Of a stretch of 64,000 nucleotides of DNA, positions 6,131-40,255 are shown in pieces; within the stretch, counting starts at the first letter, position 1, and every line of letters starts with the position of its first letter. The translations under genes were made by a program, and so were the position numbers. The stretch is from Candidatus Goldiibacteriota bacterium HGW-Goldbacteria-1 (lineage in GTDB: Bacteria; Oederibacteriota; PGYV01). The stretch lies in the NCBI GenBank assembly GCA_002839855.1, contig PGYV01000006.1, positions 16,367 to 80,366 on the forward strand, written 5' to 3'. The notes under the pieces were generated by a model that saw only the letters and a list, made by a program, of their open reading frames with translations, had not been told where the DNA came from and searched no databases.

Positions 6131-8191
6131 ATGGCTAAAAAGCACCTGATTGTTTTAACGTTAATTCTTATGGCTGCGTTTATTTACGCTTCGCCTGTTT
6201 CTGAAAACGGGCAGCTTAAAGTAAACGGGCTTCAGCTTGTTAATCAATGCGACACGCCGGTGCAGCTGCGCGGCGTTTCCACGCATGGTATAGGGTGGTT
6301 TGACGGCTGTTATACTCAGGCTGCGGTTCAGTACGCGGCAAATACAATGAATTCGGATTTGTTCAGGATTGCAATGTATGTAAAAGCTTCGGAAAGCGGC
6401 TATCTTCAGGACCCGGCGTATTGGACATCGCGCGTTAACCAGATGGTGGACTGGATAGGCGCGGCGGGAATGTACGCTTTAATTGACTGGCATATATTAA
6501 ATGATGACCCGAATAATTTTATAGAAGACGCAAGGATATTCTGGACTGCAATGGCAACAGAACACAAGGATAAAAACTTTGTGATATACGAATTATGCAA
6601 TGAACCTAACGGCGTGACCTGGGCTCAGATAAAAGCTTACGCCGAAGATATTATTCCGCGTATAAGGGCCATTGACCCGGACGCGGTTATTGTAGTCGGT
6701 ACGCCCAACTATTCGCAGCTGGGCGCCGATGTTGTAAATGACCAGATACTTGAACCCAATATAATGTACGCGTTTCACTTTTACGCGGGTACACATTCCA
6801 CGTCCATGCTTATACCATATATAAACCAGATTCCGATATTTGTATCCGAATGGGGCGCAAGCAATGCTTCCGGCGACGGCGGCGACAATTATCCGCGCGC
6901 GCAGCAGTTTATGGATATAATGTCCGGCGTTGACACGATAAACAATCCGCAGGGCATAAAACTAAGCTGGGCTTCATGGTCGTATTCCGACGACAGGGAC
7001 TGGGCAACTGACCAGCACTTAAAATCCACGTCGCATCTTACTTTAAATTCCTGCAGCACAACCGGCTGGACAATAGCAAATTTAAGCACGGCAGGGCAGT
7101 TTGTTGCCGCTAATATTACCAATCCTGCAAGAAATTTTATCTGCTGGACTGCAACTGAAACTCCTGTCGGCGACCCGCATACGCCGACAGTTACAAGGAC
7201 TGTAACGCCCACAAGAACAATAACTTCGACGCCTGTCCCTGATTTAATTTATAACGGCGATATCGCGGGTTATACACTTGCGGACGGCAGCGTCAACAAC
7301 GCGGCAATGTTTTCTGAACCGGCGGCGGGGAACACGGGCAATGCGATGCAGATTGCTTACACTGCGGGAGGATGGCAGGAAGCCCGGTGGATGACAACTG
7401 CAAGGCCCAGAAATGACAGGACATATATAAGTATTGATGTAAGGGCGACGGCAGGCACGATAAGCCAGCTGCTTTTTATACCTGATTGGAACACATGGAC
7501 AAACCGCGCAACAGATAATGATTTTAACGTTGCCGCATACGTGCCTGGCGGTGTGATAACAACAACATGGAAGACCGCGTATATCCCGCTTTCAAAAGTT
7601 TATAACCCGTATCCGACAACCCTTGGGACAATGAGGTTTATCTCTAACAGCGCCATATATACAGTTCAGATTGATAATATAAAGTTCTTTGACGCGTCAG
7701 TATGGACGCCCACAGTCACAAGGACAAGGACACCCACAAGGACAGCTACAAGGACAAGGACGCCCGCGGCAACAATGACTGCAACCCCCACTGTTACAAT
7801 GACTCCGCAGGCGACTTATACGCCCACGTTGACGGCTACTGTTTATGTGGAACCTACGGTTACGCCCACTATTTCCGCCAATATAAGGATAACAATAGGC
7901 GATCATTTTCCTTATCCCAACCCTTCAAACGGAAGAAGCGTTAATATACGTTACCAGATAAAGACCGGTTTCGCGAAAAATGTTAAAATACATATATATA
8001 CGCTTGGCGACAGAAAAATAGATATGATAAAGGATTCTGACAGCGCGCCCGGTTTTCACGATGTGCTGTGGCGACCCAAACAGCAGCTTTCCAACGGAAT
8101 GTACTATTATATAATGGAGGCTGACAACGGGCGGACAGGGGACAGATTAAAACGCGATGTGGTTCAGGGTGCGATTGTAGTGCTTAAATAA
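6131..8191 (+). CDS. secreted GH5 endoglucanase (cellulase) with an unclassified CBM-like domain, T-X linkers and a conserved C-terminal sorting domain
   Basis: A signal peptide is present. GH5_2 hallmarks are VIYELCNEPNG (acid/base), FHFYAGTHS and FVSEWG (nucleophile). The CBM-like domain lies at about 7244-7700. The C-terminal domain YPNPSNG..YYYIMEADNG..VVLK lies at 7880-8188. Confidence 0.9.
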   Translation: MAKKHLIVLTLILMAAFIYASPVSENGQLKVNGLQLVNQCDTPVQLRGVSTHGIGWFDGCYTQAAVQYAANTMNSDLFRIAMYVKASESGYLQDPAYWTSRVNQMVDWIGAAGMYALIDWHILNDDPNNFIEDARIFWTAMATEHKDKNFVIYELCNEPNGVTWAQIKAYAEDIIPRIRAIDPDAVIVVGTPNYSQLGADVVNDQILEPNIMYAFHFYAGTHSTSMLIPYINQIPIFVSEWGASNASGDGGDNYPRAQQFMDIMSGVDTINNPQGIKLSWASWSYSDDRDWATDQHLKSTSHLTLNSCSTTGWTIANLSTAGQFVAANITNPARNFICWTATETPVGDPHTPTVTRTVTPTRTITSTPVPDLIYNGDIAGYTLADGSVNNAAMFSEPAAGNTGNAMQIAYTAGGWQEARWMTTARPRNDRTYISIDVRATAGTISQLLFIPDWNTWTNRATDNDFNVAAYVPGGVITTTWKTAYIPLSKVYNPYPTTLGTMRFISNSAIYTVQIDNIKFFDASVWTPTVTRTRTPTRTATRTRTPAATMTATPTVTMTPQATYTPTLTATVYVEPTVTPTISANIRITIGDHFPYPNPSNGRSVNIRYQIKTGFAKNVKIHIYTLGDRKIDMIKDSDSAPGFHDVLWRPKQQLSNGMYYYIMEADNGRTGDRLKRDVVQGAIVVLK

Positions 8192-8205: not shown

Positions 8206-10473
8206 ATGCGTAAATTTTACCTGACACTCACCGCTCTTTTATGCTGTTCGGTTTTTCTTTCAGCCGCTGACAGCGATATTGTTTATTGCGGTGCAGGATA
8301 TAAACCTGTAATGTCAAAAAAGGCATCGGTTAATGTGCCCTGCACCTCGTTTCAGGTGCTTAGGTCATCGGATAATGCATCTGTTTATTCCGGCACTGCA
8401 TCAGCGCCTGTATATACTTCTGACAGCGAAAGAAATGTTTATGTTCTGGACTTTTCGCCGCTTACAACGCCGGGCAATTATTACATAAATGTGGACGGGG
8501 TGGGCAGGACGCAGGGTTTTGAAATTTCAGAAACGGTTTTTGAGGATGTTTTTAAAAAAGTTTTTCTTGGAATGTATATGTGGCGGTCCGGAACCGCGGT
8601 TTCTTATACTTACGGCAGTACAACATATTCCTGGAACGCCGGACATATGGCTAACGCGAATTTATACTATTCAAACGAGCCGTATTCAAATTCATACAAG
8701 GACGGCACAGGCGGCTGGTATGACGCTGGAGATTACGGAAGATACCTGGGAAATGTGGGGATAACAGTATGGCCTATGTTTATGGCGTGGGAAGATTTCG
8801 GCGATTCAATAAATGCCATGACATACGGGATTCCTGATTTAAATCCGGGGATGCCGGAATATCTTCAGGAAATAAAATGGGAAACCGACTGGCTGTTTAA
8901 AATGATGTACGCGGACGGCAGCGGTAAAATTCACGATAAGCTTACAAGCAAAAATCACACTTCAATGAACGTGTTGCCCGCGAATGACACTTCGCTTATG
9001 TATTTTCTTCCGTGGAGCACGTATGCCACTTCTAATTTCGCCGGCACGATGGCAATGGCGGCAAGATACTTCGCGCCCTATGATTCGTTTTACGCGCAGG
9101 AATGCCTTGACGCCGCGGAACTTGCGTTTCAGGCATTAATAGACAATCCGTCAATAGTAACATTTGACGCTTACGGGCTTGGTTTTTACACCGGCATTTA
9201 TAACGGAGATGACGCGGGCAACAGGATATGGGCGGCCGCGGAACTTTTTGCGTCCACGGGAAAAACGGTTTACCGCGATTATTTTGAAGCAAGGGCTTCA
9301 AGCGGATATATGCAGTCTATATATGACTGGAATAATCTTTTAGATATGGCTATGCTTACTTATTATTTCTGCGACAGGCCGGGTAAGAATTCGGTCATTA
9401 CGGACAGGATAAGAACCAACACGATAAATACAGCAAATGGGATTGTTTCATCCGTTAATTCTCATGGCTATGGAAGGTCAATGTCAAATCACTGGTGGGG
9501 AAGTAACGGCGTGGTGGCAAGGATGTCTGTGATTTTATATTCGGCTTTTAAAATGACAGGGGATTACAAATATAGAAATGCCGGCTTTGAAATATTAAGC
9601 CATCTGTTTGGCAGAAATCATTTTGGACGCTCTCAGGTAACGGGTATCGGCACTAACCCCGCGCTTTATCCGCATGACAGAAGGTGTAATGCCGACGGAA
9701 TTGCCGCGCCGATACCGGGGTATCTTGTGGGCGGTTCGCATGGGTCTAATAATACGGATGACCCGATAATTGGAGCAATGCCCGCTGGGCTTCCAAAGGC
9801 CGCGTATTGGGTCGATAATGTGGGTTCTTATTCATCAAATGAAATTGCCATTAACTGGCAGGCAGGGCTGATATACGGTGTTGCTGCTTTTTTAAAAGAC
9901 GGGCCGGCGCCTACGGTTACGCCTACCGTTACGGTAACCCTGACAAGAACAAACACTCCTATTGTATCGCCGACGCCGACAAGGACACTTACAGCGACAA
10001 AGACAGCCACAAGGACAATTACTTTTACAAGCACAGCTTCGCCTACGCCTACAATTACGTTGACATCAACGGTTACGCCGTTTGTGACATCCACGCCCAC
10101 GTTTACCATAACCATGACGTCAACAATAACAATTACAGCCACCCCAACTTCCGAAATTCCTTCGGTTTATATAACGGTGGGTGAACATTTTCCTTATCCA
10201 AACCCGTCAAAAGGAAATGAAATTAAAATAAGATATCAGATAATAAAAGGGCTGGCAAAAACAGTTAACATTCATTTTTACACCCTTGCAGACAGAAAGT
10301 TTGACACGATAAAAGAGAATAACATAGGTATAGGATGGCATGAAGTTTTGTGGAAGCCCAAAAAGAAACTTGCGTCCGGAATGTATTATTATGTCATTGA
10401 AGCGGACAACGGGAAGTTTGGTGGATTAAATAAGAAAGCTATAAAGCAGGGTGCGGTTGTGGTAATAAAATAG
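8206..10473 (+). CDS. secreted GH9 endoglucanase with N-terminal Ig-like domain, T-X linker and C-terminal sorting domain
   Basis: The GH9 signature GGWYDAGDYGRY is present. A CelD_N-like N-terminal domain precedes it. The linker PTVTPTVTVTLTRT lies at 9903-10155. The C-terminal domain lies at 10156-10470. Confidence 0.9.
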   Translation: MRKFYLTLTALLCCSVFLSAADSDIVYCGAGYKPVMSKKASVNVPCTSFQVLRSSDNASVYSGTASAPVYTSDSERNVYVLDFSPLTTPGNYYINVDGVGRTQGFEISETVFEDVFKKVFLGMYMWRSGTAVSYTYGSTTYSWNAGHMANANLYYSNEPYSNSYKDGTGGWYDAGDYGRYLGNVGITVWPMFMAWEDFGDSINAMTYGIPDLNPGMPEYLQEIKWETDWLFKMMYADGSGKIHDKLTSKNHTSMNVLPANDTSLMYFLPWSTYATSNFAGTMAMAARYFAPYDSFYAQECLDAAELAFQALIDNPSIVTFDAYGLGFYTGIYNGDDAGNRIWAAAELFASTGKTVYRDYFEARASSGYMQSIYDWNNLLDMAMLTYYFCDRPGKNSVITDRIRTNTINTANGIVSSVNSHGYGRSMSNHWWGSNGVVARMSVILYSAFKMTGDYKYRNAGFEILSHLFGRNHFGRSQVTGIGTNPALYPHDRRCNADGIAAPIPGYLVGGSHGSNNTDDPIIGAMPAGLPKAAYWVDNVGSYSSNEIAINWQAGLIYGVAAFLKDGPAPTVTPTVTVTLTRTNTPIVSPTPTRTLTATKTATRTITFTSTASPTPTITLTSTVTPFVTSTPTFTITMTSTITITATPTSEIPSVYITVGEHFPYPNPSKGNEIKIRYQIIKGLAKTVNIHFYTLADRKFDTIKENNIGIGWHEVLWKPKKKLASGMYYYVIEADNGKFGGLNKKAIKQGAVVVIK

Positions 10474-10478
10474 ACGGC

Positions 10479-10583
10479 GGCTAGGCAGCTAGGCAGCTAG
10501 GCAGCTAGGCAGCTAGGCAGCTAGGCAGCAAGGCGGCAAGGCGGCAAGGCGGCAAGGCGGCAAGGCGGCAAGGCGGCAAGGCG
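10479..10583. repeat. tandem octamer microrepeats, left arm of a composite intergenic element
   Basis: (GCTAGGCA)x6 followed by (CAAGGCGG)x7. The reverse-complement arm, (GCTTCCCA)x4 + CCGCCTAGCTGCCTAGCTGCC, lies at 10871..10925. Confidence 0.85.
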
Positions 10584-10870
10584 GGCGCACCTTTTAAGGT
10601 GCGGTTGTAGCGAGCATGCGAAGCGGAAATCCCGGCAATGAAGCGAGCTTGCAATCTGAAGCGGGCGGGACAGTTGGTTGTTAATATGAAGAATATTTTA
10701 AATAGAATAGAACCAGTATAAAACGGATTAATTATATAAAAACATAATCAAAACAACGCGGGCTAAAGACCCGCGTCTACCAAGGCACAAAGAAACTTCC
10801 AACCATCCAACCATCAAGGTGTCTTAAATATATTCCGTGCTTTTATCATCTATCTCTGATATGTCTTATA

Positions 10871-10925
10871 GCTTCCCAGCTTCCCAGCTTCCCAGCTTCC
10901 CAGCCGCCTAGCTGCCTAGCTGCCG
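10871..10925. repeat. reverse-complement tandem microrepeat arm, right end of the composite intergenic element 10479..10925
   Basis: CTTCCCAG is repeated 4 times, then CCGCCTAGCTGCCTAGCTGCC. This is the reverse complement of the left-arm motif. Confidence 0.85.
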
Positions 10926-11082: not shown

Positions 11083-14000
11083 TTGAAAAAACTAACATTG
11101 CTGACTATAGCCGTTTTGTTTATAACAGTTAATATTTTTTCCGCACAAAATAATGCCATCCGCGTGGACATGGAGGGTTATAGAACCCTTGGTAATAAAT
11201 ATGTAATTCTTGTCGGGAATTCTGCTACATCATTCACCGTTAAAACTGTTTCGGGCGGTACAACTGTATTTACCGGCACTTTTTCGGCGGCTGTTGCCGA
11301 TGCCGCGTCCGGTGATTCTGTTAAAACAGGCGATTTTTCCGCGCTTACAACACCCGGCGAATACTACGTAGCGGTAACAGGGTTGGGCGAATCTTATAAC
11401 TTTAGAATATCCGATACCATTCATACTGACACTTTAACCACTCTTATGCGGGGATTTTACGGGCAGCGCTGCGGCGCATCTGTAACCTTAACTCACAGGG
11501 GAACCACTTTTACCCACGGCGCGTGCCATTTAAATGACGGAACTTACGCGGGTTCAACCGGATTAAACGGGACAAAGAATACAACCGGAGGCTGGCACGA
11601 CGCCGGCGATTACGGCAAGTACGCCTTAAACTGCGGCGTAACAAACGGCGAGCTTCTTCTTATGTACGAAAAATATTACGATGCGCTTGAACACATTAAT
11701 CTTGGGCTTCCATATTCCGGCGGCGCGCTGCCTGACGTTCTGACCGAAATTAAATACAACCTTGACTGGCATAAAAAAATGCAGCACACAAACGGCGGTG
11801 TTTTCCACAAACTTTCAAACGGCTTTCCTCAGAATATTATGCCGACGTCAGATACTGATACAAGGTATATCTTTGCAATATCTTCCGCCGCGACCGCGGA
11901 TTTTGCGGCTGTAATGGCAATTGCGGCGCGCGTTTTTGATATGTATGACGCCGCGTACGCCGCGGAATGCCTGACAGCCGCACAAAACGCGTGGGCTTTT
12001 TTACAGGCAAACCCCAATATTGTCCCGGCCGGCGGTTTTACTGACGGCAGTATGGGCGGAATTTACGGCGATACCGATGACAGTGATGAAAGGTTATGGG
12101 CGGCGGTTGAACTGTTTAACACCACAGGCGAGGCGCAGTATAATACTTATGTTGCCGCGCATTATACGGATAGAACGCTTACATTAATGTCTGACCTTGG
12201 CGATGATTGGAAAGAACTTCATCCCGTTGCTTATATGTCATATATGCAGTCCAAACAGCCATCGGTAAATACCACCGTGGTTAACGCTATGAAAACGTTA
12301 TTTCAGCCGCAGGTTAACACGTTCAGGAACAGGGTGCAGTCAACGAACGGGTATAAGTTTGTACTTAACTCCGGCGATTATTACTGGGGCTCAAACTCTG
12401 TTGCTTTAAACAGGGCGATACGGCTTGTTGCGGCATCGGAAATATTCGGAGATGATACTTATAAAGACGCCGCGGAAGAAGTGCTTCATTATATCCTTGG
12501 CAGAAACGCCATGAATAAATCTTATCTTACTTACGTCGGCGAGGTTTACACGAACCAGCCTCATCACCAGCCGTCTGCCGCGGATGGAATTACGCCGCCC
12601 TGGCCCGGGATTCTTGCCGGAGGGCCAAATGAATATTACGATACAATAGGGGCGCCGGCAAAATGTTATGTTGATGATGCAGGGAATTACACTTCCAACG
12701 AAGTGGCAATAAACTGGATGGCGGCGTACGCTTATGTGCTTGCGGCTTTTGTTCCGACGCCGGGGCCTACAAATACGCCTACCAATACCCCCACGTCTTT
12801 ATGCCACCCGCTTACATGTACTTTTACGCAGACAAGCACACCGACTGTCACTGCCACGCCGATAAATGTTTTAAGGGTAAATGTGGCGGGGGCTCAGGTA
12901 ACCACCGGCGGAAATGTCTGGCTTGCCGACAAAGCATATATAGCGGGAAGCTGGGGTTATAACACACCCGCAAATACCGGCGACCGTACCGCGCTTGGAA
13001 ATATTGTAAACAACACAACAGATGATGTTTTGTATCTTACGGAAAGATGGGGCGCGGCGCTTTCTTATACTTTTGACCTTGCAGACGGCTGGTATCTTGT
13101 CACGCTTAAATTTAATGAAATGTTTGTAAACAGCGCCAATGCCAGGCTGTTTAATATACTTCTTGAAGGGCAGGTTGTGGAATCGTCTTTTGACGTTTAT
13201 GCCGTTAATAACAGCCAGGCATACGCGGTTGACAGAAGTTATCCGGTATTGTTAACAGATGGAAAACTGAACATTGACCTTACGCAGGTAACCGAAATGT
13301 GTATTTTAAACGCGCTGCGGATAGAATCATATTACCCTCCAACCGCCACTTATACATACACTCCTTTAAACACAAATACGTTCACAAATACCGCGACAGC
13401 AACCGCTACATTTACAAATACATCCACAAGCGAATGCTATCCGCTTACATGTACGTTTACAAATACCAATACTTACACAAGCACACAAACGCCTACAAAC
13501 ACGCCTGTGCCCACTCCGATACGCGTAAACTGCGGAGGCGCGGCTTATCTTGACGGCGCGGGGAACACATGGGCTGCGGATTATGGGTTTACCGGCGGGA
13601 CTGCCACATCTGTAACTGACGCGATTGCAGGCACAACAGATGACACGCTTTATCAAAGCGAAAGGTACGGAAACCCGTCATATACTTTTACCGTTCCAAA
13701 CGGATATTATGATATTACGTTTAAGTTCGCTGAAACATGGTTCAACGCGGCAGGGGAGAGGATTTTTGACGTAAGTGTGGAGGGAGTAACTGTAATTGAC
13801 AATCTTGACTTATATGTATCAGCTCCCGGAGCAATGCGCGCGTATGATGTAATTATATCAAATGTTTTAATTACGGACGGGCAGATAAATATAACCGCTT
13901 CATCCGCGGTTGACAGCGCCAACTTCCGCGCCATTGCAATAATCCCCGCGGGCCCGGCGCCTACATTCACATATACAAATACGGTGCCTCCGACAAACAC

Positions 14001-15168
14001 ACATACGAACACAAATACCGATACTGCGACAGCCACATCCACTTTCACAAACACTTATACGGCAACAGATACCGCCACAAGCACATATACTTATACGCAT
14101 ACCAGTTCACATACCGCCACAAATACACCGGAGCCTCCCACAAATACACATACCGCAACTGATACCGCGACATATACTTATACGAATACAAATACATCCA
14201 CTTTCACATATACGCATACACATACGGCAACGCATACCAATACGGAAACCCCGACAGACACAAATACCGCAACAATTACAAACACTCCGCCGCCGGGCAG
14301 CACAAACACGCATACTTTCACAATTACATCAACTCCGTCGGATACTCATACCGCCACATATACTTATACTTACACATTTACAAATACGGCAACGCAGACC
14401 TATACCGAAGTGCCTCCGACCTTTACAGGTACTTTCACGGAAACGTTTACGTTCACATACACTTCAACTTACACGCACACGGCAACAATAACAGATACGG
14501 TTCCGCCGGGAAGCACGTCCACTAACACCCCCACGCAAACGCTGATTCCGTCAAATACCCACACGCATACGGCCACTGAAACAAGTACTTATACAAACAC
14601 TTATACCGCCACAAATACTTTTACGGAAACAAACACGGTTCCGCCGGGAAGTACAAACACTAACACTCCCACAGAAACGCTGATTCCGTCAAACACTGAT
14701 ACCGCTACACATACACACACGCATACGTTTACAAATACATACACGGCTACAAGTACACCTGTTATTCCGACTGATACGCATACGGCAACGGCAACGGTTC
14801 CGGCGCCCACAGCCACGATTACAAATACTCCCTCTTCCATTATCGCGGAAGACGCAAAACAGATAATTTCTGAAGTTATGATTTATCCAAATCCTTATAA
14901 TTCTAAAATTTCTCCGGCAGGACCCTTTGTCATATTTAAACTTGCGAAGAATGCCGCAGGAGTGTCGCTTAGAATATATTCATCTTCATTCAGGCTTGTG
15001 AAAAATATTGAATTTGAAGGAGTATTTACGGCAGGGTTGAACAGGGCGCATACCCGCGCAGAAGATTTTAAAAATCTTTCAAACGGCACTTATTATTTTG
15101 TCCTGACAGCGGACGGTGCATCAGGAAAAGCCAAAAGCAAAGCGGATAAGATGATTGTCTTAAAATAG
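11083..15168 (+). CDS. secreted GH9 endoglucanase with two malectin-like CBMs, a ~300-aa alternating-Thr region and C-terminal sorting domain
   Basis: A TTG start follows RBS AAGGAGAAA. GGWHDAGDYGKY marks the GH9 domain. Two INCGG / NCGGAAY...ERWG domains resembling malectin/CBM57 lie at about 12850-13320 and 13516-13945. A (T-X)n region lies at 13950-14830. The C-terminal domain lies at 14850-15165. Confidence 0.85.
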   Translation: MKKLTLLTIAVLFITVNIFSAQNNAIRVDMEGYRTLGNKYVILVGNSATSFTVKTVSGGTTVFTGTFSAAVADAASGDSVKTGDFSALTTPGEYYVAVTGLGESYNFRISDTIHTDTLTTLMRGFYGQRCGASVTLTHRGTTFTHGACHLNDGTYAGSTGLNGTKNTTGGWHDAGDYGKYALNCGVTNGELLLMYEKYYDALEHINLGLPYSGGALPDVLTEIKYNLDWHKKMQHTNGGVFHKLSNGFPQNIMPTSDTDTRYIFAISSAATADFAAVMAIAARVFDMYDAAYAAECLTAAQNAWAFLQANPNIVPAGGFTDGSMGGIYGDTDDSDERLWAAVELFNTTGEAQYNTYVAAHYTDRTLTLMSDLGDDWKELHPVAYMSYMQSKQPSVNTTVVNAMKTLFQPQVNTFRNRVQSTNGYKFVLNSGDYYWGSNSVALNRAIRLVAASEIFGDDTYKDAAEEVLHYILGRNAMNKSYLTYVGEVYTNQPHHQPSAADGITPPWPGILAGGPNEYYDTIGAPAKCYVDDAGNYTSNEVAINWMAAYAYVLAAFVPTPGPTNTPTNTPTSLCHPLTCTFTQTSTPTVTATPINVLRVNVAGAQVTTGGNVWLADKAYIAGSWGYNTPANTGDRTALGNIVNNTTDDVLYLTERWGAALSYTFDLADGWYLVTLKFNEMFVNSANARLFNILLEGQVVESSFDVYAVNNSQAYAVDRSYPVLLTDGKLNIDLTQVTEMCILNALRIESYYPPTATYTYTPLNTNTFTNTATATATFTNTSTSECYPLTCTFTNTNTYTSTQTPTNTPVPTPIRVNCGGAAYLDGAGNTWAADYGFTGGTATSVTDAIAGTTDDTLYQSERYGNPSYTFTVPNGYYDITFKFAETWFNAAGERIFDVSVEGVTVIDNLDLYVSAPGAMRAYDVIISNVLITDGQINITASSAVDSANFRAIAIIPAGPAPTFTYTNTVPPTNTHTNTNTDTATATSTFTNTYTATDTATSTYTYTHTSSHTATNTPEPPTNTHTATDTATYTYTNTNTSTFTYTHTHTATHTNTETPTDTNTATITNTPPPGSTNTHTFTITSTPSDTHTATYTYTYTFTNTATQTYTEVPPTFTGTFTETFTFTYTSTYTHTATITDTVPPGSTSTNTPTQTLIPSNTHTHTATETSTYTNTYTATNTFTETNTVPPGSTNTNTPTETLIPSNTDTATHTHTHTFTNTYTATSTPVIPTDTHTATATVPAPTATITNTPSSIIAEDAKQIISEVMIYPNPYNSKISPAGPFVIFKLAKNAAGVSLRIYSSSFRLVKNIEFEGVFTAGLNRAHTRAEDFKNLSNGTYYFVLTADGASGKAKSKADKMIVLK

Positions 15169-15485
15169 CAGCTAGGCAGCTCAGCAGCTTAGAAGCTCAG
15201 TTTAGATCTGGTAGGCGCACCCTTCAGGGTGCGGTTATAGCAAGCCTGCGAAGCGGAAATCCCGGCAATGAAGCGAGCTTGCGAGTGAAAGCAGGCGGGA
15301 CAGTTGAACTTGGTTGTAAACAAAACGACTTCTGCCTCTGTTATAACGACGTTATTACTATGCGTACGAAACAAAAAAAATCGCAACAATTAAATCTAAA
15401 CAGTACGGGATAAAAACCCACATCTACCAATACCAAACCTTCAGAGCCGCCAAGCCGCTTAGCTGCCCAGCTGCTTAGCTGCAGT
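15169..15485. repeat. composite palindromic intergenic element with microrepeat arms, hairpin A and a conserved 70-nt module
   Basis: Left arm GCAGCTAGGCAGCTCAGCAGCTTAGAAGCTCAG. Hairpin A lies at 15209-15240. The module GCGAAGCGGAAATCCCGGCAATGAAGCGAGCTTGC lies at 15249-15283. Right arm GCCGCCAAGCCGCTTAGCTGCCCAGCTGCTTAGCTGCAG. Confidence 0.8.
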
Positions 15486-15609: not shown

Positions 15610-18546
15610 ATGAAAAAATCTTTAAACGCCTTATTAATGGTGTTTATCTTTATTCCTTTATTATATGCCACGCCTGTATCTGAAAACGGCGAGCTTAAGC
15701 TTGTCGGAAATCAGCTTTCCAATTCATGCGGAAATCCGGTCCAATTAAAAGGAATGTCCAGCATGGGGCTTCAGTGGTACGGCGTTGGTCAGTGTCTGGA
15801 TACCGCCACTATGGATTATATGGTTAATACAATTGGAATTGATGTATTCAGGGCTGCTATGTATGTTGATGAAGGCGGATACCTGACTGATAAAACGAAA
15901 TACTCTAATATGGTAAATACAATTGTTGACTGGTGCGAAGCACGGGGTATTTATGTGATAATTGACTGGCATATGCTTACGCCGGGCGATCCTAATGCTC
16001 ATATTAATGAGGCCAAAACTTTTTTCGCGGAAATGTCATTAAGGCATAAAGATAAAAAGCACGTAATATATGAAATCTGCAACGAACCTAACGGCGTTTC
16101 GTGGTCAACTGTTCAGACTTACGCGAATATCATAATCCCCATAATCCGCGCAAATGACCCTGACACCATAATAATAGTAGGTACGCCTAACTGGTCACAG
16201 CTTGGTACTGATGTTGCAAATAATAAATTAAACTATACAAATATTATGTACACGTTTCATTTCTATGCCGCATCACATTCCACCGGCTTAGTTACGCCCT
16301 TTACCGATAAACTTCCAATTTTCTGTACAGAGTGGGGCATAAGCGATGCAAGCGGAAACGGCGCAATTGACACTGCAAACGCCACGAATTTTTTAAACAT
16401 ATTTGACGGAGCCAATACAGGCGGTCAGAAAATAAGCTGGGCAGGGTGGTCGTGGTGTGATAAAAACGAATCTTCTGCGTATCTGCAGGCAGGGTCGTGC
16501 CTCAGCAACCCGCCAAGGTTTACAACCGCGGGTAACTATATAATAGGCAAGATTCAGACGAATCCGAATAACTGGACAGCGTGTAACGCGCAGACTCCCA
16601 CTTTTACAAAAACAATAACACCGGGCGGGCCTACGTTTACACCCACCAGAACGCCCACTCCTTTTGCAAGTTTGTTGGTCAACTGTGCCGGGCCGCAGTA
16701 TACAAATGCGGAAGGCGTATGGCAGGCTGATAAAGCTTACGCGGCAGGAAGCTGGGGATATGTGGGTGGTACGGTTGTAAGCAGGGGAAGTGTGGCAATT
16801 GGCAATACCACAGATGACACGCTGTATCAGACTGAACGTTATGCGGACCCGGTGGAATACAGGTTTGATATTCCTAACGGGACATATTCGGTTACGTTTA
16901 AAATGTGTGAATCTTATTGGGGAAACACGACAGGCGGAAACGGAAGCAGGATATTTGACATAGTAGCGGAAAACAATACTGTAGTAAACAACCTTGATTT
17001 GTACGCGGTGGCGGGATATAACAATGCTTATGACGTAACGGTCAATATTACCGTAAATGACGGGCAGCTTAATATATCAATGCCTGCTGATGTTGATAAC
17101 GGGCTTATTAACGCGATAAAAATTGTAAACGCGGCTTCTGTGACAAACACTCCCACAAGGACCAATACGTTTACCGCCACAAGGACGCATACAAATACGT
17201 TTACAAAAACATTCACGCACACTTTTACAAGGACGAATACTTTTACCGCGACAAGGACAAACACCTTTACCGCGACAATTACTCATACTTTTACAGCCAC
17301 AAGGACAAATACGCCCGTACCTCCCACAAACACGTTTACAAATACGGCTACAAGGACATATACGCCGGTACCTCCCACAAACACATTTACAAATACGGCG
17401 ACAAGGACATATACGCCGGTACCTCCCACAAACACATTTACAAATACGGCTACAAGGACATATACTCCTGTGCCGCCAACAAGCACATTTACTGACACAG
17501 CCACAAAGACAAATACGCCCGTTCCGCCTACAAACACGTTTACTAAAACGGCTACAAATACTGCAACAAACACATTTACAAATACGGCAACTAACACAGC
17601 CACAAAAACAAACACGCCTGTGCCGCCGACAAACACATTCACGAACACTGCCACAAAGACAAACACGCCGACTGTTACGGAAACACCTATCCCGGGCAGC
17701 ACTGATACGTTTACACATACAATAACAAATACATTTACAAAAACAAATACGTTTACAAATACGCATACTGCAACTGATACATTTACGCCTGTTCCGCCCA
17801 CAAGTACGTTCACAAACACGGCGACAAATACATTTACAAATTCCAATACCGCCACCAATACAAATACCGCCACAATTACAAACACGCCTCCGCCGGGAAG
17901 CACAAATACGTTTACGCACACAATAACAAATACATTTATAAATACGGCCACAAATACGTTCACGTCAGTGCCGCCGACAGCCACGCATACATATACAAGG
18001 ACGTTTGTAAATACGGCCACAAACACTTTCACGTCAGTGCCGCCGACAGCCACGCATACATTTACAAGGACGTTTATAAATACGGCCACAAATACGTTCA
18101 CGTCAGTGCCGCCGACAGCCACGCATACGTTTACCGTTTCTTATACTGAAACAGCCGTTGTTTTTACCCCCACATATACCTTTACGGCAACCGTAACTGT
18201 TGTGTTTACAGGTACGCCAACGCCGGTTGCTACTGAAGGCAAAAAAGCCGAAATTAAAGATGTTGATGTTTATCCGGTTCCTTTTGGAAAAAAAGGGAAC
18301 GTATATTTTGAATTTACCCTTACCAAAAGCATGAACTCCGTTGAGCTGAAGATTTATTCTTCGGGTTACAGGCTGTTAAAGAGAGTTGATGTTTCTTCGG
18401 CATGCGTTCCCGGAAGAAAGAAGAGCGCAATAGCGGCAGGGGAATTTGTAAATCTTGCAAATGGGACGTATTATTTTGTACTGGAAGGTAATAGCGCGGA
18501 CGGATATGTGAGAAGCAGGACAGAGAAGATGATAATTTTAAAATAG
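15610..18546 (+). CDS. secreted GH5 endoglucanase with a malectin-like CBM, a ~360-aa T-X/PVPP repeat region and C-terminal sorting domain
   Basis: RBS AGGAG precedes the ATG at 15610. GH5 hallmarks are [11 protein letters not shown] and FCTEWG. The malectin-like domain reads [10 protein letters not shown]...TERYADP. The repeats [17 protein letters not shown] occur 3 times. The C-terminal domain lies at 18240-18543. Confidence 0.85.
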
Positions 18547-18707
18547 AGGCTTGGATGCTTTGAGGCTTGGATGCTTTGAGGCTTGGAAAGCTTGGCAGCT
18601 CGGCTTGAGTCTTTTGTCATGGTAGGCGCACCCTTTAGGGTGCGGCAGTCAGCTGTGGTTAGGCATTTGTTGTCCTGGTAGACGCGGGTCTTTAGCCCGC
18701 GGCAGTT
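18547..18707. repeat. intergenic microrepeat arm plus hairpin families A and B
   Basis: (GAGGCTTGGATGCTT)x2.5 lies at 18547-18610. Hairpin A GGTAGGCGCACCCTTTAGGGTGCGGCAGT lies at 18621-18650. Hairpin B GGTAGACGCGGGTCTTTAGCCCGCGGCAGTT lies at 18676-18707. Confidence 0.85.
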
Positions 18708-18849: not shown

Positions 18850-21800
18850 ATGAAAAAAGGGATACTGAAATTACTTACAGGGCTTTTAATATTAATCCCG
18901 TCGTTTATATTCTCTGCGGATTCTCAGGTTAGGGTAAATTCTGTGGGATTTCTTCCTGCAAATGACAAAGGGGCGTCGGTCTCTACGGCGGTTTCGGGCT
19001 TCAACAAACGCTGTTGTTTTTTCTTCAACCGCCGCTAATATCACCGGGCCGGTTAATGCAACTGATTCCAATGAAACTGTTTATAAACTTAATTTTACCT
19101 CTTTTACAACACCCGGCACCTATTATGTTGATGTGACCGGCGTCGGCAGGTCGGTTAATTTTACTATAGCGGATAATGTATATAATGATGCTTATATTAC
19201 TTCTTATAAATCCATGTATTACTGGCGCTGCGGAATGGCTGTCAGCGCTGTTACAAACGGGCAGACTTTCGGGCACGGCGCGTGCCATACAAATGACGCG
19301 AATCAGAACTACATAGGATTTGGAAGCAATATTAGGGACGGAAAAGGCGGCTGGCATGATGCCGGAGATTTTAACAAATATATAGTTAACGCAGGCATAA
19401 CAATGGGTATGTTCTTCATGGCGTGGGAACATTACGGAAGCGTACTGAACAATATCCCGCTTACATACATGCCGAATACAGTTGCAGGTTATCCGGAGTA
19501 TAATGTATCGGCGTATCCTGATTTTCTGAAAGAATTAAGGTGGGAAATGGACTGGGTTTTAAAAATGCAGTATCCGGACGGTTCCGGTAAAGTTTCCCAT
19601 AAATTAAGCACCCTGAATTTCGGCGGTTTTATAATGCCGGAAACAGAAACCGCAACCCGCTATTATGTTGACTGGGGTTCTGCGGCTACCGCTGATTTTG
19701 TGGCGATGTGCGCAATGGCTGCCAGAATTTTCTACCCGTATGACCCTGTGTACGCGCAGAAATGCCTTGACGCGGCATGGGTAAGTTATAATTTTCTGCG
19801 CACAAATACGGCGAATAAAAACCCGGATCAGTCCGCATTTACAACCGGAGGATATGGGACAACAGACAGCGACGACAGGCTATGGGCTGCAGCTGAAATG
19901 TGGGCCACGACAGGTGATGCCAATGCAAAGACAGACCTTGATAACAGGGCAAATGCTTATTCCGATAAAACGGATGAGGATTTTGACTGGGGCAACGTAA
20001 AAAATCTGGGCATGTACACGTATTTGATGTGCACAAGGACAGGCAAGAACACAGCTATTGTAAATGATATACAGGCTGATTTGATTGCCGATGCAAACAC
20101 TATAGTTACAAAGAAAAATAATCACGCGTATTCAAGGCCTTTGGGCACAAATTTTTACTGGGGCTGCAATGGTTCGGTAGCAAGGCAGACAATGCTGCTT
20201 CAGATTGCCAATATGGTGTCGCCCAACGCTAACTATGTTAATACAGCGCTTGATTCGCTTGGATATCTTCTTGGAAGAAACCCTTTCAGGCGTTCATATG
20301 TAACGGGAATCGGGACAAGCCCTCCGATGTACCCGCATGACAGGACGTCCGGCGCGGATGGTATAACAAATCCTGTGCCGGGATATCTTGTAGGCGGTTC
20401 TAACGGAACCAACAGCGGCGACCCCGCTTTAACCGCAATGCCGGCAGGCCTTGGTGCCGCTATGTACTGGACAGATAATCAGGATTCATATGCCTCAAAT
20501 GAAATTGCTATAAACTGGCAGGGAGCGCTTGTTTACGCGCTTGCGGGTTTTTGTAAAAATCCGTCAGTACCCACATTCACGCCCACTAATACAAATACGC
20601 CCGACGGCCCCACATATACTTTCACAAATACGGCTACGCAGACAAATACGTACACGCCGTCGCATACATTCACGGTTACACCCACTGTTGTATTACCTGT
20701 GGCAATTTGTTCCGGGCCATCTTTGATAATTGACGGAAGCCTGGATGAAGCTTTCTGGCAGGCAGGGGAATGGACTGAGGTTTTAAAAGTGGTTACGGGT
20801 ACAATGCCTGCGCCCGTATCCGCGCGTTATAAAGTGCGGTATGATGATTATGGTTTTACCCTTGGCGTGCAGATTACTGACAGCGCGCTTTACAATGATT
20901 CCGGCACAGAATGGTATAACGACGATTCGGTTGAACTTTACCTTGATGTTAATAATGATAAAAGCACAACATACGACGCTGATGATTATCAGTTCAGCGT
21001 GCGCTACGTCGAAGGTATAATAAGGGAACAAAGCGGTGATCCCGGAAACGCTTACGCTGCTTACGGCTATATTGTGGGAGGTTACACGGTTGAAATTGAT
21101 GTGCCATGGGCCGATTTGGGAGTTACCCCTTTTGAAGGCATGGTAATGGGTTTTGACGTAGGCGTAAATTATGACCAGGACGGCGATGAAAGGGAAGGTG
21201 TTTTGATGTGGAACGGCACAAGCACCAACTGGCAGAACCCTTCAAATTTCGGCGAAGTAACCCTTGGCGCGCCGTGCGGTGCCGCGGAAACGCCCACGCA
21301 CACTTATACCAACACATCCACTTACACGCATACTGCGTCATACACATCAACCTTTACAAACACAGCAACAGTGCCTACAAACACGTTTACAAGCACAGCA
21401 ACAGTGCCTACAAACACGTTTACAAACACAGCAACAGTGCCTACAAACACGTTTACAAGCACAGCAACTGCACCTACATATACTTTTACGAGCACAGCAA
21501 CTGCACCTGCAAATACGTTTACGAGCACAGCAACTGCACCTGCAAATACGTTTACGAGCACAGACGTTTACAAATACGGCAACTGTTCCGACAAATACTT
21601 TCACTAACACGGCAACTGTACCGACAAATACATTTACTAATACTGCAACAGTCCCTACAAATACGTTTACAAGTACTGTAACAGTCCCTACAAATACGTT
21701 TACAAGTACAGTAACAGTATCTACAAATACATTTACAAGCACAGCAACAGCGCCGACAAATACTTTCACTCAAACTCCAACAATTCCAACGCCTACATAT

Positions 21801-22139
21801 ACTGTAACCCCTGTGATACAGGAAGGGGATAAACAGAAGATTACGGATGTAATGGTTTTCCCGCACCCATATAACGCTTCCAAAAATCCTTACGCCGGCA
21901 TAAAGTTTAACCTTTCCAAAAGCGCGGCTGTGGTAAAGATAAGATTATATTCATCAGCTTTCAGGTTGTTGGAAGAATCGGACATAGCAAAAAACTGCCA
22001 CCCGGGCAGTAATATCGGCGCGATAAGCGGAAGAAGGCTGTCAACAATGTCCAACGGGACGTATTATTTTGTCCTGATCTCGGAAGATAATGCAACAGAG
22101 GTCAGAAGTAAAGTGGATAAGATGATAATAATGAAGTAA
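18850..22139 (+). pseudogene. GH9 endoglucanase - CBM9-like - T-X repeat - C-terminal-domain gene interrupted by two frameshifts
   Basis: Three consecutive ORFs in different frames together give a complete protein. The pieces are a signal peptide + Ig-like N-terminus (frame 1), a GH9 domain with GGWHDAGDFNKY plus a CBM9-like domain IDGSLDEAFW (frame 2), and TFTNTATVPTN repeats plus the C-terminal domain (frame 3). The shifts fall at about 18990-19000 and at 21563/21564, where one 33-nt repeat unit is truncated to 16 nt. Confidence 0.7.
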
Positions 22140-22140: not shown

Positions 22141-22355
22141 GGTTAGAATGAAAACCTTATCCCATAACCTGTTATCCCATATCCCATAAATAAAGGCATA
22201 CATCCGGCCGCGTCTTTACCTATGGGATAGGTGAATGTTGGTATTATCAAATTTCGAATCTCGAATTTCGATTCTCGATACACTTCCGTCCCTCACGCTT
22301 TAAACCGTCCCTCATGTTTTCCTAGCTGCCTAGCTGCCTAGCTGCCTAGCCGCTT
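22141..22355. repeat. intergenic repeat cluster
   Basis: TTATCCCATA / TATGGGATA inverted pairs. An (AATTTCGA/ATCTCGA) tandem at 22249-22280. A CCGTCCCTC module. (CCTAGCTG)x4 at 22322-22354. Confidence 0.75.
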
Positions 22356-22448
22356 CTCTTTCCTCAATTTTTCTGCTATAATCATCACAACTTTATTCAT
22401 TTGTTTTTGTCCAAAAACGAATTAACGCCTTATATCAAAGGAGAAAAG

Positions 22449-25400
22449 ATGACACTTAAACGGGTTTTAGCCACGGTATTTCTTCTTTCCATATTAAACT
22501 CTTACATTATTAGTGCGCCGATAACAGAGCAGATTATCGTTGACCAGATAGGGTACAGGACAACTGCCGACAAATGGTTTATGATTGCGGATCCAAGGAC
22601 GGGTTATAACGCAGCTGTTACATACGTTCCGGGTGCAAGCGTGGAATTAAGGCGCGCATCTGATGATATATCGGTTATGACTATCCCCGTTACCGCATGG
22701 AATGCCGGCGCGGAACATTCCCAGTCCGGCGATGTGGTATGGCAGGGAAATTTTTCCGCATATACAACGCCCGGTACTTATTACATATTTGACACCACAA
22801 ACAATACTCAGTCATTTGATTTTGATATTGCGGATGATACGTATAACACAATTCTTGAAAGCTCTGTTAAATCCTATTATTACCAGCGGTGCGGTACGGC
22901 AATTACCGGCGCTCACGGCGGTACGTGGACACATGCCGCTTGCCATACAACCACTCAACAGACTGCGCGCCTTTACGACGCATCACTTGGCGGCGATCAG
23001 GGAGCGGCAACCGCACGCGACATTACCGGCGGATGGCACGATGCCGGCGATTACAGAAAGTACACATCTTGGATGGCTGTTATAGTATGGGACTTGGCTT
23101 ATGCTTACGAATGGAACCCGGACGCATTTTCGGATGCTACCGGAATTCCGGAATCTAACAATGGCGTACCGGATATATTAGATGAAATAAAATGGGAACT
23201 TGACTGGCTTTTGAGAATGCAGGGTACAAACGGCGCGCTTTATTCAGGCGCATTTGTCGTGACAGGAATAAACGGAACAGGAAACGGTATCGGAGACCCG
23301 TCAACAGAGAACAGGCAGTATTTTTATGCCAACTATTCAACAGCGGCCACAGGTTCCGGCTGTTCGTCATTCGCAATAGGCGCTCGCCTTTTTGCGCCTT
23401 ATGAAGCAGCTTATCCGGGTTATTCCGCCGCGCTTCAAATCGCCGCCGAAAACGCGTGGGCTTATCTTCAGGCAAATCCTTCGAATATTACTTACAATCA
23501 CACCGGGTTTGATAACGCCAACGCCAATAAAGGGGTTGATGCTGACAGGGGGCACAGGATAATGTCGGCAGCGGAACTATACAGGCTGACCGGAGATACA
23601 GATTATAGAACTTATATTGACGATCACTACGATGACCCGCCTTCTACCGGAGTGCATAATCCGATTACAAGCGGATATTTTGAAACAAGCGGTTCTTATG
23701 AAATTCAAAGGGGATTGATTTCTTACTGCCTGGTGCCGGGCGCCACGTCATCAGTTGTAACCGCGGTAAAAAATTCAATCAATCAGGGTATACAGAACCA
23801 GGCTTATGGCCAGCGCAATAACGACCCATATAAGTCTTATACTTGGGATGGCCATCACTGTTGGGGTTCAAACGGAATCAAATCTGAATGGGGCAATCTT
23901 TGCGTCTTTGGTAATAAGTTAAATGTTAACGCCGGGCTTTCTGCGGCATATTTAAAAACAGGCGAAGAGTATCTTCATTACATTCACGGGCGCAACCCTA
24001 ACGCGTTTAATTACATTACACAGTCTCAGCTTTACGGCGCGGATAAGCCGATAAAGCAGATATATCACGGCTGGTTTCACCACGGCACGGTTTGGGATAT
24101 AAATCCAGCGCCCGGAATATTATCCGGCGGGCCTAACTGGTACTTTGTTCCTGACGCTTCGTATATAGGCACAATAGAACCGCCGCAAAATCAGCCGCCC
24201 ATGAAATCATATAAGGATTGGAACACAAGCTGGCCGGAAAATTCATGGGAAGTAACGGAAAATTCAACGGGCTACCAGTCGCGATACACTCTGCTTGCTT
24301 CGTTTTTCGCCTCTGCCGCGGGCCCGACAGCCACGCCCACATATACTTTTACCTATACCGATACAATAACACCCGGCGGGCCTACGTTTACTTTTACGCA
24401 CACGCCCACTGAAACATTTACAAACAGCCACACTTCCACACAGACGCCCACGCCTGTAAGCGTGCTTTTTAATACCTGCGATACCATAAATTACAACGGC
24501 GCCTGGACAGAAACCGCTTCTACAATATCCATCAACACAATTGAAACAGCGGCCATTACGCAGGGGACAGGCGCGCTTCAGATTGATGTTGAAACAATTG
24601 CGGCATGGCAGGACGGAATAGCATCACTTGGCGGTTTTGTTCCGTCAGACTGGAGCGGTATTGCACGCATTGAAATGGATGTTTATATCGCGCCCGGCGA
24701 AGAACCTTGGGGCGCGGCAGATACTTATCATCAGCTTGTATTAGTTGTGGATTCAAATGATACTTCAAAATGGTACAGGACTATTACAGCAAATCAGAAT
24801 ATTACAACAGGCATGAACCACCTGGTGTTTACAATAAACTGGGCACTTGATTTGGACCCTGACCCGATACTGCCCATAGACGCAATTAGCAATCTTACAT
24901 TTATTATAAATTCAGAGACAGGAAATACAGGGACGTTATATTTTGACAATATGATCCTTTATTCAACAGCATCCCCGGAGACACCAACCGCCACGATAAC
25001 ACTTACCCCGGTAATTTCCGCGACGGCAACAGCGACAGTTACAATGACAGAAGTATTATCCGCCACGGCGACATTAACAGCAACTGCAACAGTTACAATG
25101 ACAGAGGTGTTTTCGTTAACTATAACCAAGACGCCTACCGCGACAGTAACTGTAACACAGGATATATCATCCACATCGACGCCGACGGCAACGGCAACAG
25201 GAACTTCGACGGTGGAGGTCTCCGCTACATCAACACAGACAGCAACCCCCACGGCAACGCATACGGAAGAATTATCCGCGACAGTTACAAATACAATCAC
25301 TGTAACAATAACAATTACTTCGTCCTTAACTTTTACGGCAACGCCGACCATAACGCTGACGCCGGTTATTTCCGCTACAAATACGGTTACAAGGACAATT

Positions 25401-25871: not shown

Positions 25872-26130
25872 ACGCTTGGATGGTTAGATGGTTAGAGGCT
25901 TGGTTAATTCTTATGTCTTGGTAGACGCGGGTCTTTAGCCCGCGTTGTTTTGATTTGATTATGTAAAAACGGACCAACTGCCGCGGGCTAAAGACCCGCG
26001 TCTACCAAGACTAAAACAAACCGACCCTCTGCCCATCCAACCTTCCGACCTTCAGTTTTTACTTCCGTCCCTTCGTTCCTCATGTTTTTCCTAGCTGCCT
26101 AGCTACTTAGCTGCCAAGCTGCCGCCTTTT
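25871..26130. repeat. composite palindromic intergenic element
   Basis: Left arm GCTTGGATGGTTAGATGGTTAGAGGCTTGG. Hairpin B at 25919-25948 and its inverted copy at 25981-26008. Right arm CCATCCAACCTTCCGACC...CTAGCTGCCTAGCTACTTAGCTGCC. Confidence 0.8.
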
Positions 26131-33535: not shown

Positions 33536-33538
33536 TTC

Positions 33539-36790: not shown

Positions 36791-36893
36791 ATGGAAATCC
36801 CGGATTTATTTTACCGGGCATAACAGGCTGAATGTTATAATATAGTGGAAAGGCCGTTTACGGTTTTTCCACTATATATTTACAGGGGTGAAC

Positions 36894-40019: not shown

Positions 40020-40255
40020 ATTGTTATAGTTTCGTCACCCGCATTGTCCGGCTCTTTTGTTTGGTAGGCGCACCTTTTAAGGTGCGGCAGTTTATCTTGT
40101 CTTTGAACTTGTATTAATATCACGAATGCCTGCGATGTCTCAACATTCACGCTATCCGGCTCTGTTTGCTCTTGTATCTTCCAATCATCCAACCCTCCGA
40201 CCTTCTGACCCTCAGTTTTCCTTCCGTCCCTCCGCACATCCGTCCCTCTGATCTA
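40020..40255. repeat. intergenic repeat cluster
   Basis: Hairpin A at 40062-40092. The CCAACCCTCCGACC / CCGTCCCTCCG module at 40181-40250. Confidence 0.75.

Follow-up and report, generated by a model that had tools for sequence, protein, structure and literature searches.

A run of secreted glycoside hydrolases with alternating-threonine arrays

Goldbacteria are uncultured degraders of cellulose. We analysed a 64-kb stretch of the genome of Candidatus Goldiibacteriota bacterium HGW-Goldbacteria-1 (contig PGYV01000006.1, positions 16,367 to 80,366; hereafter the window) and found within it a run of plus-strand glycoside hydrolase (GH) genes whose products are secreted and contain arrays in which threonine alternates with another residue, X (TX arrays). 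Each enzyme has the same layout: a signal peptide is followed by catalytic and carbohydrate-binding domains, short TX linkers, a long TX stalk and, at the very end, a C-terminal beta-sandwich domain (Table 1). One protein of the window is identical to CVV21_07540 of this bacterium. Candidate division FCPU426 is the rRNA-based name of Goldbacteria, cells of which have been recovered firmly attached to cellulose particles and three GH9 enzymes of which have demonstrated activity (PMC7031533); the paper naming the phylum remarked on 12 putative cellulases (PMC5520028). The words "linker" and "threonine" are absent from the text of both genome papers, and a literature search on alternating threonine or TXTXT matched only antifreeze papers and unrelated text.

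Pfam E-values were 1.1e-88 (GH9), 2.9e-50 (Malectin) and 2.4e-18 (CelD_N) for P1, and 9.1e-49 (Cellulase) and 2.6e-25 (Malectin) for P2. The start of the P4 gene lies further downstream than that of the 1156-aa open reading frame (ORF) at 22401; the protein is 1140 aa in L005. P6 gave no Pfam match and, in NCBIfam, only a weak match to F510_1955 glycosylhydrolase. Positions 43513-44490 of P6 encode two similar modules of ~150 aa, also without a Pfam match, which start with a Cys-x-Cys motif (PCACG, PCMCE) and have TX linkers between them. The small DUF11 ORF carries an array as well, so the arrays are not specific to cellulases; it begins 82 nt from the window edge and has no signal peptide, and its true N-terminus may therefore lie upstream.

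Table 1. Positions of TX-bearing genes, their arrays and other features in the window. CTD, C-terminal domain; T9SS, type IX secretion system; REP, repetitive extragenic palindrome.
Feature	Position	Strand	Description
DUF11 ORF	82-921	+	Small, not a glycoside hydrolase; TX array 115-243 near 5′ end; CHU_C/T9SS-like CTD
Glycosyltransferase candidate	1753-3321	+	GT-C (PMT_2-like) membrane protein, upstream of hydrolase cluster
GH5 enzyme	6131-8191	+	TX linkers 7148-7231, 7706-7840 (X = R/P/A/V); CTD of second subtype
GH9 enzyme	8206-10473	+	TX array 9913-10149 (X = P/I/V/S); CTD of second subtype
P1	11083-15168	+	1361 aa; signal peptide, CelD_N + GH9, two malectin domains, TX linkers, TX stalk, CTD
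P1 TX linker	12769-12858	+	30 aa; junction of GH9 and malectin 1
P1 TX linker	13342-13515	+	58 aa; junction of malectin 1 and malectin 2
P1 long TX stalk	13963-14829	+	289 aa; 44% Thr, 8% Pro
P1 CTD	14848-15165	+	Beta-sandwich, T9SS-CTD/FlgD-Ig-like (alignment, weak profile matches, AlphaFold2, Foldseek)
P2	15568-18546	+	992 aa; GH5, malectin, TX stalk, CTD
P2 long TX stalk	17143-18222	+	360 aa; 17-aa and 23-aa tandem units
P2 CTD	18235-18543	+	
P3	18826-22139	+	GH9, CBM9, TX stalk, CTD (Pfam); two frameshifts in assembly
P3 TX stalk	21290-21809	+	~170 aa; 33-nt (11-aa TNTFTSTATVP) tandem units; frame change near 21540-21564
P4	22401-25871	+	GH9, unknown domain, TX stalk 24981-25538 (X mostly A/V/I/P/L), CTD
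P5	26217-30932	+	GH116, two malectin domains, TX linkers 28443-28556 and 29019-29231, CTD
P5 long TX stalk	29787-30596	+	270 aa
P6	40420-45270	+	1616 aa; large secreted protein, propeller-like N-terminal region, CTD
P6 TX arrays	42544-42645, 43123-43512, 44488-44937	+	43123-43512 is 130 aa
Outer-membrane protein	52312-54255	+	PorV-like barrel, FlgD Ig-like domain, OmpA C-terminal peptidoglycan-binding domain
REP-like hairpins	10584-10604, 10757-10777, 15214-15234, 18625-18645, 18681-18701, 25924-26002, 31058-31245, 40067-40087, 45328-45474, 45742-45762, 47570-47590, 48186-48206, 52110-52130, 55189-55254		Intergenic
7-8-nt tandem repeats	10476-10584, 10870-10924, 15445-15482, 18546-18587, 22321-22350, 55073-55162, 55277-55321		Intergenic

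Extent and spacing of the arrays

In a six-frame scan of the window, runs of (T-x)n were almost confined to ten ORFs, where they lie in the coding frame; outside these ORFs we observed only two chance 8-residue matches. TX arrays occupy each domain boundary of the ten proteins. When delimited by T-x-T density they fall into two classes: short arrays of 19-71 aa at domain boundaries, and a long array that directly precedes the final ~105-residue domain in all ten proteins, measuring 45-80 aa in the small GH5 and GH9 enzymes (n = 2) and 130-360 aa in the large proteins (n = 6). A preliminary description of this DNA had reported five regions of strictly alternating threonine, each 290-360 aa long. 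Each of the five does contain Thr arrays of period 2, in frame with long plus-strand ORFs, and both of its example strings are present; three of the regions have roughly that length (~270-360 aa), but the other two are ~130-170 aa. The pattern is also wider than these five regions, being found at 82-921, 6131-8191, 8206-10473, 22401-25871 and, in P6, 44488-44937. What that description lacked is the key context: in every case the long array stands right before a C-terminal domain of sorting type.

Threonine makes up 40-48% of the arrays, and its placement departs strongly from that in composition-preserving shuffles. The P1 stalk contains 113 T-x-T (53.9 +/- 4.2 in shuffles) and no T-T at all (54.6 +/- 4.3 expected); across the arrays, T-x-T occurs at about twice the shuffle counts and T-T 0-1 times per array versus 9-65 expected. 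This avoidance of T-T indicates that the spacing is constrained and not the Thr content alone. The alternation, described before as strict over hundreds of residues, is so only inside blocks of 8-58 residues; between blocks are breaks of 2-4 residues, mostly containing Pro (VPP, PPGS, IPSN), some of which change the register. All four Thr codons are in use (ACA 345, ACG 181, ACT 131, ACC 75), so it is the amino acid that is constrained rather than a DNA repeat; the X codons vary too. The arrays do contain tandem DNA units of 33, 51 and 69 nt. Three long minus-strand ORFs (17077-17919, 17283-18122 and 24959-25513) lie wholly within TX arrays; these are stop-free by-products of ACN-NNN repeats and not genes.

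The X position most often holds Ala, Asn, Pro, Phe, Tyr, Val, Ser or His, and rarely Gly (3 of 882), Trp, Cys, Met, Lys or Leu. Aromatic X (F/Y/H/W) accounts for 25% overall and for ~30-37% in P1, P2 and P5; in P4 and in the GH5 and GH9 enzymes at 6131 and 8206, X is aliphatic or basic rather than aromatic. Pro is 5-10% in most long arrays and reaches 23% in one short linker. Two further candidate regularities were examined and rejected. The order of aromatic and hydrophobic X at lags 1-4 is no different from that in shuffles within runs, with no preferred lag. The O-glycosylation motif of Bacteroidota, D(S/T)(A/I/L/V/M/T), is too scarce to account for the pattern, with 0-6 array copies in any one protein.

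Structure prediction gave no fold for an array segment. In an AlphaFold2 model based on a 30-sequence alignment, 100 stalk residues had a predicted local distance difference test score (pLDDT) of ~40 and no regular secondary structure, and a 186-aa array folded alone from its single sequence had a pLDDT of 37. The models suggest that the arrays are likely to be extended segments without a fold of their own.

Conservation and repeat copy number

The period-2 pattern was found in every P2 orthologue, from independent assemblies and sources. Thr columns are retained at 79-100% between P2 and its orthologues (100% for the short linker), whereas identity at X is 0.23-0.85 against 0.57-0.94 in the globular domains; paired examples are 0.42 versus 0.82-0.84 and 0.23 versus 0.57-0.65. 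The leading X residues shift from N/F/A to R/A/P/W among these orthologues, whose lengths range from 790 to 990 aa with a variable stalk. The retention of period-2 placement in orthologues argues that it is selected. The preliminary description had proposed a survey of length variation between strains, and such variation is seen.

The window matches two other contigs, one of 685 kb from a JGI metagenome and one of 180 kb from ENA. Outside the arrays the ENA contig shares 99.8% identity with the window, from which it differs almost only by whole units of 17 aa, 23 aa and 11 aa; P2, for instance, is 992 aa in the window and 912 aa in the ENA contig, which has two 17-aa and two 23-aa units fewer. 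Part of this apparent length polymorphism may be assembly collapse. The window lacks 33 + 17 nt (50 nt) of the P3 array near 21540 relative to the ENA contig, causing a frameshift, and a second P3 break near 18990 coincides with a scaffold gap (a run of N) in the JGI contig. Since P3 is intact in the ENA contig (1126 aa) and the other break falls at the JGI gap, both breaks are assembly artefacts, and a biological origin of the frameshifts was rejected.

A sorting-type C-terminal domain and its possible partners

All ten TX-bearing ORFs end in one kind of domain. The C-terminal ~105 residues of nine of the ten proteins align (P3 as a C-terminal fragment), beginning with a YPNP-type start and carrying a G-x-Y-Y motif close to the end. 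The domain has weak, sub-cut-off matches to Por_Secre_tail, CHU_C, FlgD_ig and the PorU C-terminus in 3-6 of nine members. The best scores of the P1 domain reach 20.3 bits with Pfam PF18962 (cut-off 27) and 14.4 with TIGR04183 (cut-off 23); among the nine members none reaches either threshold, and 4-6 of the nine have matches below it. The fold is predicted confidently: an AlphaFold2 model built from a 30-sequence alignment is a beta-sandwich with pLDDT 94-98. Its top Foldseek match in the PDB is PorU of Porphyromonas gingivalis (6za2; E 4e-4, root-mean-square deviation 2.4 A), followed by FlgD and, more weakly, the CTD of the cargo NucA in a T9SS complex (8glk_D, E 0.017). Between P2 in the window and its orthologues P0015 and P0016, identity is 24-29% in the C-terminal domain and 65-83% in the GH5 domain, and this far greater divergence suggests that sorting domains are exchanged among paralogues.

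A PorV-like outer-membrane protein is encoded 7 kb downstream. Its barrel matches PorV in the PDB over residues 4-231 (6h3i_F, E 2.4e-7), and Pfam E-values are 1.5e-4 for PorV, 3.3e-7 for FlgD_ig and 3.7e-20 for OmpA. The fusion of a PorV-like barrel with FlgD Ig-like and OmpA domains is unusual outside Bacteroidota. The C-terminal sorting domains have a candidate partner in this protein. Within the 64 kb covered here, it is a PorV-like counterpart to one component of the T9SS core (SprA/Sov, PorV, PorU, GldKLMN). The fold of the C-terminal domain and the neighbouring PorV-like protein fit a T9SS-like sorting route; because the domain scores below the family thresholds and the window alone was covered, we term it T9SS-CTD-like and do not count it as a T9SS member.

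The membrane protein at 1753-3321 scores below the cut-off for Pfam PMT_2 (1.2e-4) and partially matches an NCBIfam mannosyltransferase (4e-7). The family is rare, with 12 database relatives at E <= 1e-5, and homologues bear PF13231; a PDB search gave no solved relative. Any tie between this GT-C candidate and the TX arrays is speculative.

Co-occurrence of stalk and domain across databases

We used the C-terminal domain profile in an exhaustive search of 1.84 billion representatives at E <= 1e-10 (a word-indexed search with the same profile yielded 10 short fragments only) and obtained 389 proteins. Among 84 full-size proteins with a single C-terminal copy, 72 have a TX coverage of >=30% in the 120 aa upstream. 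Stalks in the 84 have a median length of 177 aa (interquartile range 82-273, maximum 524) by a gap-tolerant measure, 10-20 non-TX residues sitting between array and domain. TX arrays were absent from the proteins of this set that have many internal copies of the Ig-like domain. Counting P2 homologues together with the cluster members, 50 of 50 proteins with the domain at the C-terminus are TX-rich. The TX share of the protein has a median of 19% in the 84 domain-bearing proteins versus 0.8% in GH5 homologues without the domain, most of which, largely from Bacteroidota, are practically free of TX. Arrays are likewise missing from those Bacteroidota GH5 homologues whose Por_Secre_tail domain is genuine.

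Alternating threonine is more widespread than the domain. We scanned GTDB, with one genome for each species, for twenty ACNNNN units in a row and obtained at least 120 stretches, a sample rather than a census, which also include (AC)n microsatellites and non-coding stretches. Long alternating-Thr runs are present, among the matches listed, in Chloroflexota (including Herpetosiphon aurantiacus), Binatia, Myxococcota, Verrucomicrobiota, Acidobacteriota, Actinomycetota, Burkholderiales and cellulolytic Firmicutes, and in the runs listed from outside Goldbacteria X is nearly always Pro and/or Ala. Malectin proteins found through their arrays in the homologue search have 30-35% Pro and 15-30% Ala at X and lack the C-terminal sorting domain. 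FCPU426 loci are mostly distinguished by a diverse X, with the exception of L024 (~51% Pro at X). One FCPU426 metagenome-assembled genome (MAG) contains an 8-kb locus (L071; CAWIXE010000003.1, 416001-424000) with a single open frame of T-x dipeptides throughout, reading TQTVTETITQTM... and then TETA...; it extends past both ends of the locus and encodes at least 2666 aa. This may be a giant fibre or stalk protein.

Other features of the window

The gaps between genes contain two kinds of repeat. REP-like hairpins belong to two families, GGCGCACCCTTTAGGGTGCGG and GACGCGGGTCTTTAGCCCGCG, with ~10 copies each in 64 kb versus 0 expected. Every copy is located in a gap behind a gene, and two often share a spacer. 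Tandem repeats of 7-8 nt (GCAGCTAG/GCAAGGCG, AGCTTCCC, GAGGCTTG, CCTAGCTG, ACAGGTT and TGTAACT) border the hairpins and sit immediately past stop codons or ahead of starts. Amid the glycoside hydrolase cluster, 31569-40010 encodes a MarR regulator, an outer-membrane efflux protein and two AcrB-type RND transporters.

Interpretation

Selection retains threonine at every second position of these arrays and keeps out Thr-Thr; the X residue is almost unconstrained, and array length shifts by whole repeat units. We think it probable that the TX arrays are extended linker or stalk segments without a fold of their own, on secreted glycoside hydrolases that are probably attached to the cell surface. 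The short arrays serve as proline-threonine (PT) linkers do. By analogy with the serine-dipeptide stalks of Gram-positive adhesins, we read the long array as most likely a tether. Once the enzyme is exported, its C-terminal domain would send it to the outer-membrane surface, a delivery in which the PorV-like protein may participate, and the enzyme would be anchored there. The stalk could then act as a long tether that keeps the enzyme and its binding modules off the cell and within reach of insoluble cellulose. The alternating Thr side chains would be the functional residues, most likely sites of O-glycosylation, which on the same analogy is the most likely reason behind their strict spacing; O-glycans could stiffen the chain, keep a beta-prone sequence soluble and shield it from proteases.

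Several points weigh against this reading. The C-terminal domain scores below the cut-off everywhere and might act as a secretion signal that is cleaved off and anchors nothing, or be just an Ig-like module, and the literature consulted places T9SS in Bacteroidota (PMC10202324). The weak GT-C match is the sole glycosyltransferase candidate nearby. Alignment of low-complexity orthologues is biased to pairing T with T, and for sequence of this kind a low AlphaFold confidence is a weak indicator of disorder. Finally, ~25% aromatic X is unusual for a disordered linker, and a pure spacer model leaves it unexplained; this keeps a cellulose-adhesive or self-associating role in consideration, with low probability.

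The arrays could instead be plain flexible linkers, disordered, Thr-rich and of a lineage-specific type, on enzymes that are free, the C-terminal domain being only an export signal or Ig-like module and the length of the last array having no function. The short arrays do have the positions and lengths of ordinary linkers (PMC3490864), X = P/A alternating-Thr linkers are common in Chloroflexota, Binatia, Myxococcota, Verrucomicrobiota and Actinomycetota, including in proteins without the domain, and no fold is predicted. We nevertheless regard this as unlikely, though a serious contender: the longest array always adjoins the C-terminal domain and is 3-10 times the length of inter-domain arrays, a spacer of 80-520 aa leading to a discarded domain is not expected to persist family-wide, and the T9SS-CTD-like fold and the nearby PorV-like protein point the other way. 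The chance that the arrays are artefacts, that is, non-coding simple DNA repeats or assembly errors translated as protein, is close to nil. The frameshift within the P3 array and the tandem DNA units would suggest such an origin, but in ten ORFs the arrays lie in frame between confidently identified domains and use varied codons for Thr and X, and they recur in orthologues from independent assemblies, with the frameshifted gene intact in another contig.

A different group of explanations gives the arrays a binding surface. Strict period 2 would align all Thr on one face of a strand, and the preliminary description had on this ground drawn a parallel with beta-helical ice- and cellulose-binding proteins; T-T is also excluded. 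In such a Thr ladder, a regular beta-solenoid or flat sheet would dock its Thr or aromatic X face on crystalline cellulose, much as type A binding modules or the TxT faces of insect antifreeze proteins do on their targets; the proteins are cellulases, the abundance of aromatic X in P1, P2 and P5 would suit the role, and TxTxTxT motifs are reported on ice-binding faces (for example PMC13080227). The parallel is not supported, and we consider a folded ladder quite improbable. AlphaFold2 finds no structure, uninterrupted blocks measure anything between 8 and 58 residues and reveal no constant coil length, aromatic and hydrophobic X are aperiodic, and Gly, which turns would require, is nearly missing at X. 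The composition of X drifts between orthologues and unit copy number varies between near-identical contigs; arrays with aliphatic or basic X (P4, GH5 at 6131, GH9 at 8206) and the array on the non-enzyme DUF11 protein fit it poorly, and dedicated binding modules (malectin, CBM9) are already present. Alternatively, beta-prone TX strands of neighbouring enzymes could pair as an intermolecular zipper to form a surface mesh or fibre, similar to a cellulosome without cohesins and dockerins. Thr, Phe, Tyr, Val and Ile favour beta structure, the arrays are low in Pro, the FCPU426 MAG protein of at least 2666 aa of pure TX looks fibre-like, and Fap1-type serine-X (SX) repeats build fimbriae (PMC2952246). 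However, Pro-containing breaks every 8-58 residues and a variable X would frustrate regular pairing, and glycosylation, if present, would work against it; we hold the zipper to be very improbable. A broader and still improbable version is that the arrays form a polysaccharide-adhesive or self-associating tether of a new kind rather than a passive spacer: an extended strand with Thr, perhaps glycosylated, on one face and Asn and aromatic residues on the other, lying along cellulose or zipped to its neighbours. If true, Goldbacteria would wear a Velcro-like coat of tethered cellulases, with giant TX-only proteins as fibres, as a cohesin-free alternative to the cellulosome.

Altogether, the TX stalks are best read as a lineage-specific, Pro-poor, Asn/Ala/aromatic-rich and very long version of the known class of dipeptide stalks and linkers, similar to PT linkers and, to a greater degree, to the SX and SD stalks of adhesins anchored at the surface. 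The same architecture recurs on all enzymes of the cluster and throughout the phylum, which points to cell-tethered cellulases on Thr-type dipeptide stalks. A TX array followed by the C-terminal domain also provides a simple sequence signature for surface proteins of the Goldbacteria phylum, with the caution that TX arrays collapse or frameshift in assemblies.

Comparison with known systems

Antifreeze proteins have TxT motifs of 3-7 residues per coil in a fixed repeat of 12-16 residues that folds into a solenoid. The TX arrays resemble these beta-solenoids in that alternating Thr would face one side of a strand, and differ in having runs of up to 58 residues, no fixed coil length, no predicted fold and a variable number of units.

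The likeness to the T9SS cargos of Bacteroidota lies in the signal peptide and the C-terminal beta-sandwich of ~80-100 aa with a YPNP-type start, in a fold like that of the PorU C-terminal region and the NucA CTD, and in the PorV-like protein nearby; many T9SS cargos are glycoside hydrolases, as here. The C-terminal domain described here differs in falling below all curated thresholds, in belonging to a phylum outside Bacteroidota, and in its association with TX arrays, which GH5 homologues with a genuine Por_Secre_tail lack.

Linkers of bacterial cellulases average 34-35 aa (range 14-75), with ~35% Pro and ~30% Thr (PMC3490864). PT-box linkers and the short TX arrays share a place between catalytic and binding modules, alternating Thr, low complexity and a length of 20-70 aa. 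The preliminary description had set the arrays apart from ordinary linkers as neither short nor PT/S-rich; this applies to the long arrays, which are far longer and have 5-10% Pro against ~35%, but the short ones are linker-like, and (PT)n boxes alternate too. Compared with the PT-box profile as a whole, position and Thr content agree, and Pro content and the length of the terminal arrays (130-360 aa, 3-10 times the length of any surveyed linker) do not. Pro is likewise far below the 30-35% at X of Chloroflexota-type arrays, and X is dominated by Asn, Ala, Phe, Tyr and His, unlike in PT/TA linkers.

The staphylococcal Clf/Sdr proteins (ClfA/B, SdrC-G) have 25-275 serine-aspartate (SD) repeats between a ligand-binding domain and an LPXTG anchor, and these repeats are glycosylated and hence protected from proteases (PMC3794999). 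According to one proposal, SD repeats cross the envelope and leave the functional domain exposed; their copy number is variable. The TX repeats, too, stand between a functional domain and a C-terminal end domain; X is nearly free where SD repeats have a fixed Asp, and the TX arrays are nearly uncharged where SD repeats are acidic. Glycosylation is established for SD repeats and is suggested for the TX arrays by this analogy.

In the serine-rich repeat (SRR) glycoproteins Fap1, GspB and SraP from Gram-positive cocci (consensus SX), as in the TX arrays, a hydroxy amino acid occupies every second position and its partner is nearly free. Both kinds of repeat sit between functional globular domains and a C-terminal surface-anchoring signal, the anchoring of the TX proteins being a prediction. 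Either kind can extend over hundreds or thousands of residues: Fap1 has ~2000 aa, the TX arrays here are at most 360 aa, and that of the related MAG is at least 2666 aa. The TX proteins differ in using Thr and not Ser, in belonging to a diderm candidate phylum and not to a Firmicute, in being glycoside hydrolases and not adhesins, and in ending in a T9SS-CTD-like beta-sandwich and not in LPXTG; accessory SecA2/Y2 or GtfA/B genes were not seen in the window, and the TX arrays double as short inter-domain linkers. Since SRR repeats and TX arrays share no sequence homology, their likeness represents convergence, and the class of dipeptide-repeat stalks to which the SRR and SD-repeat types belong is a functional and not a homologous family.

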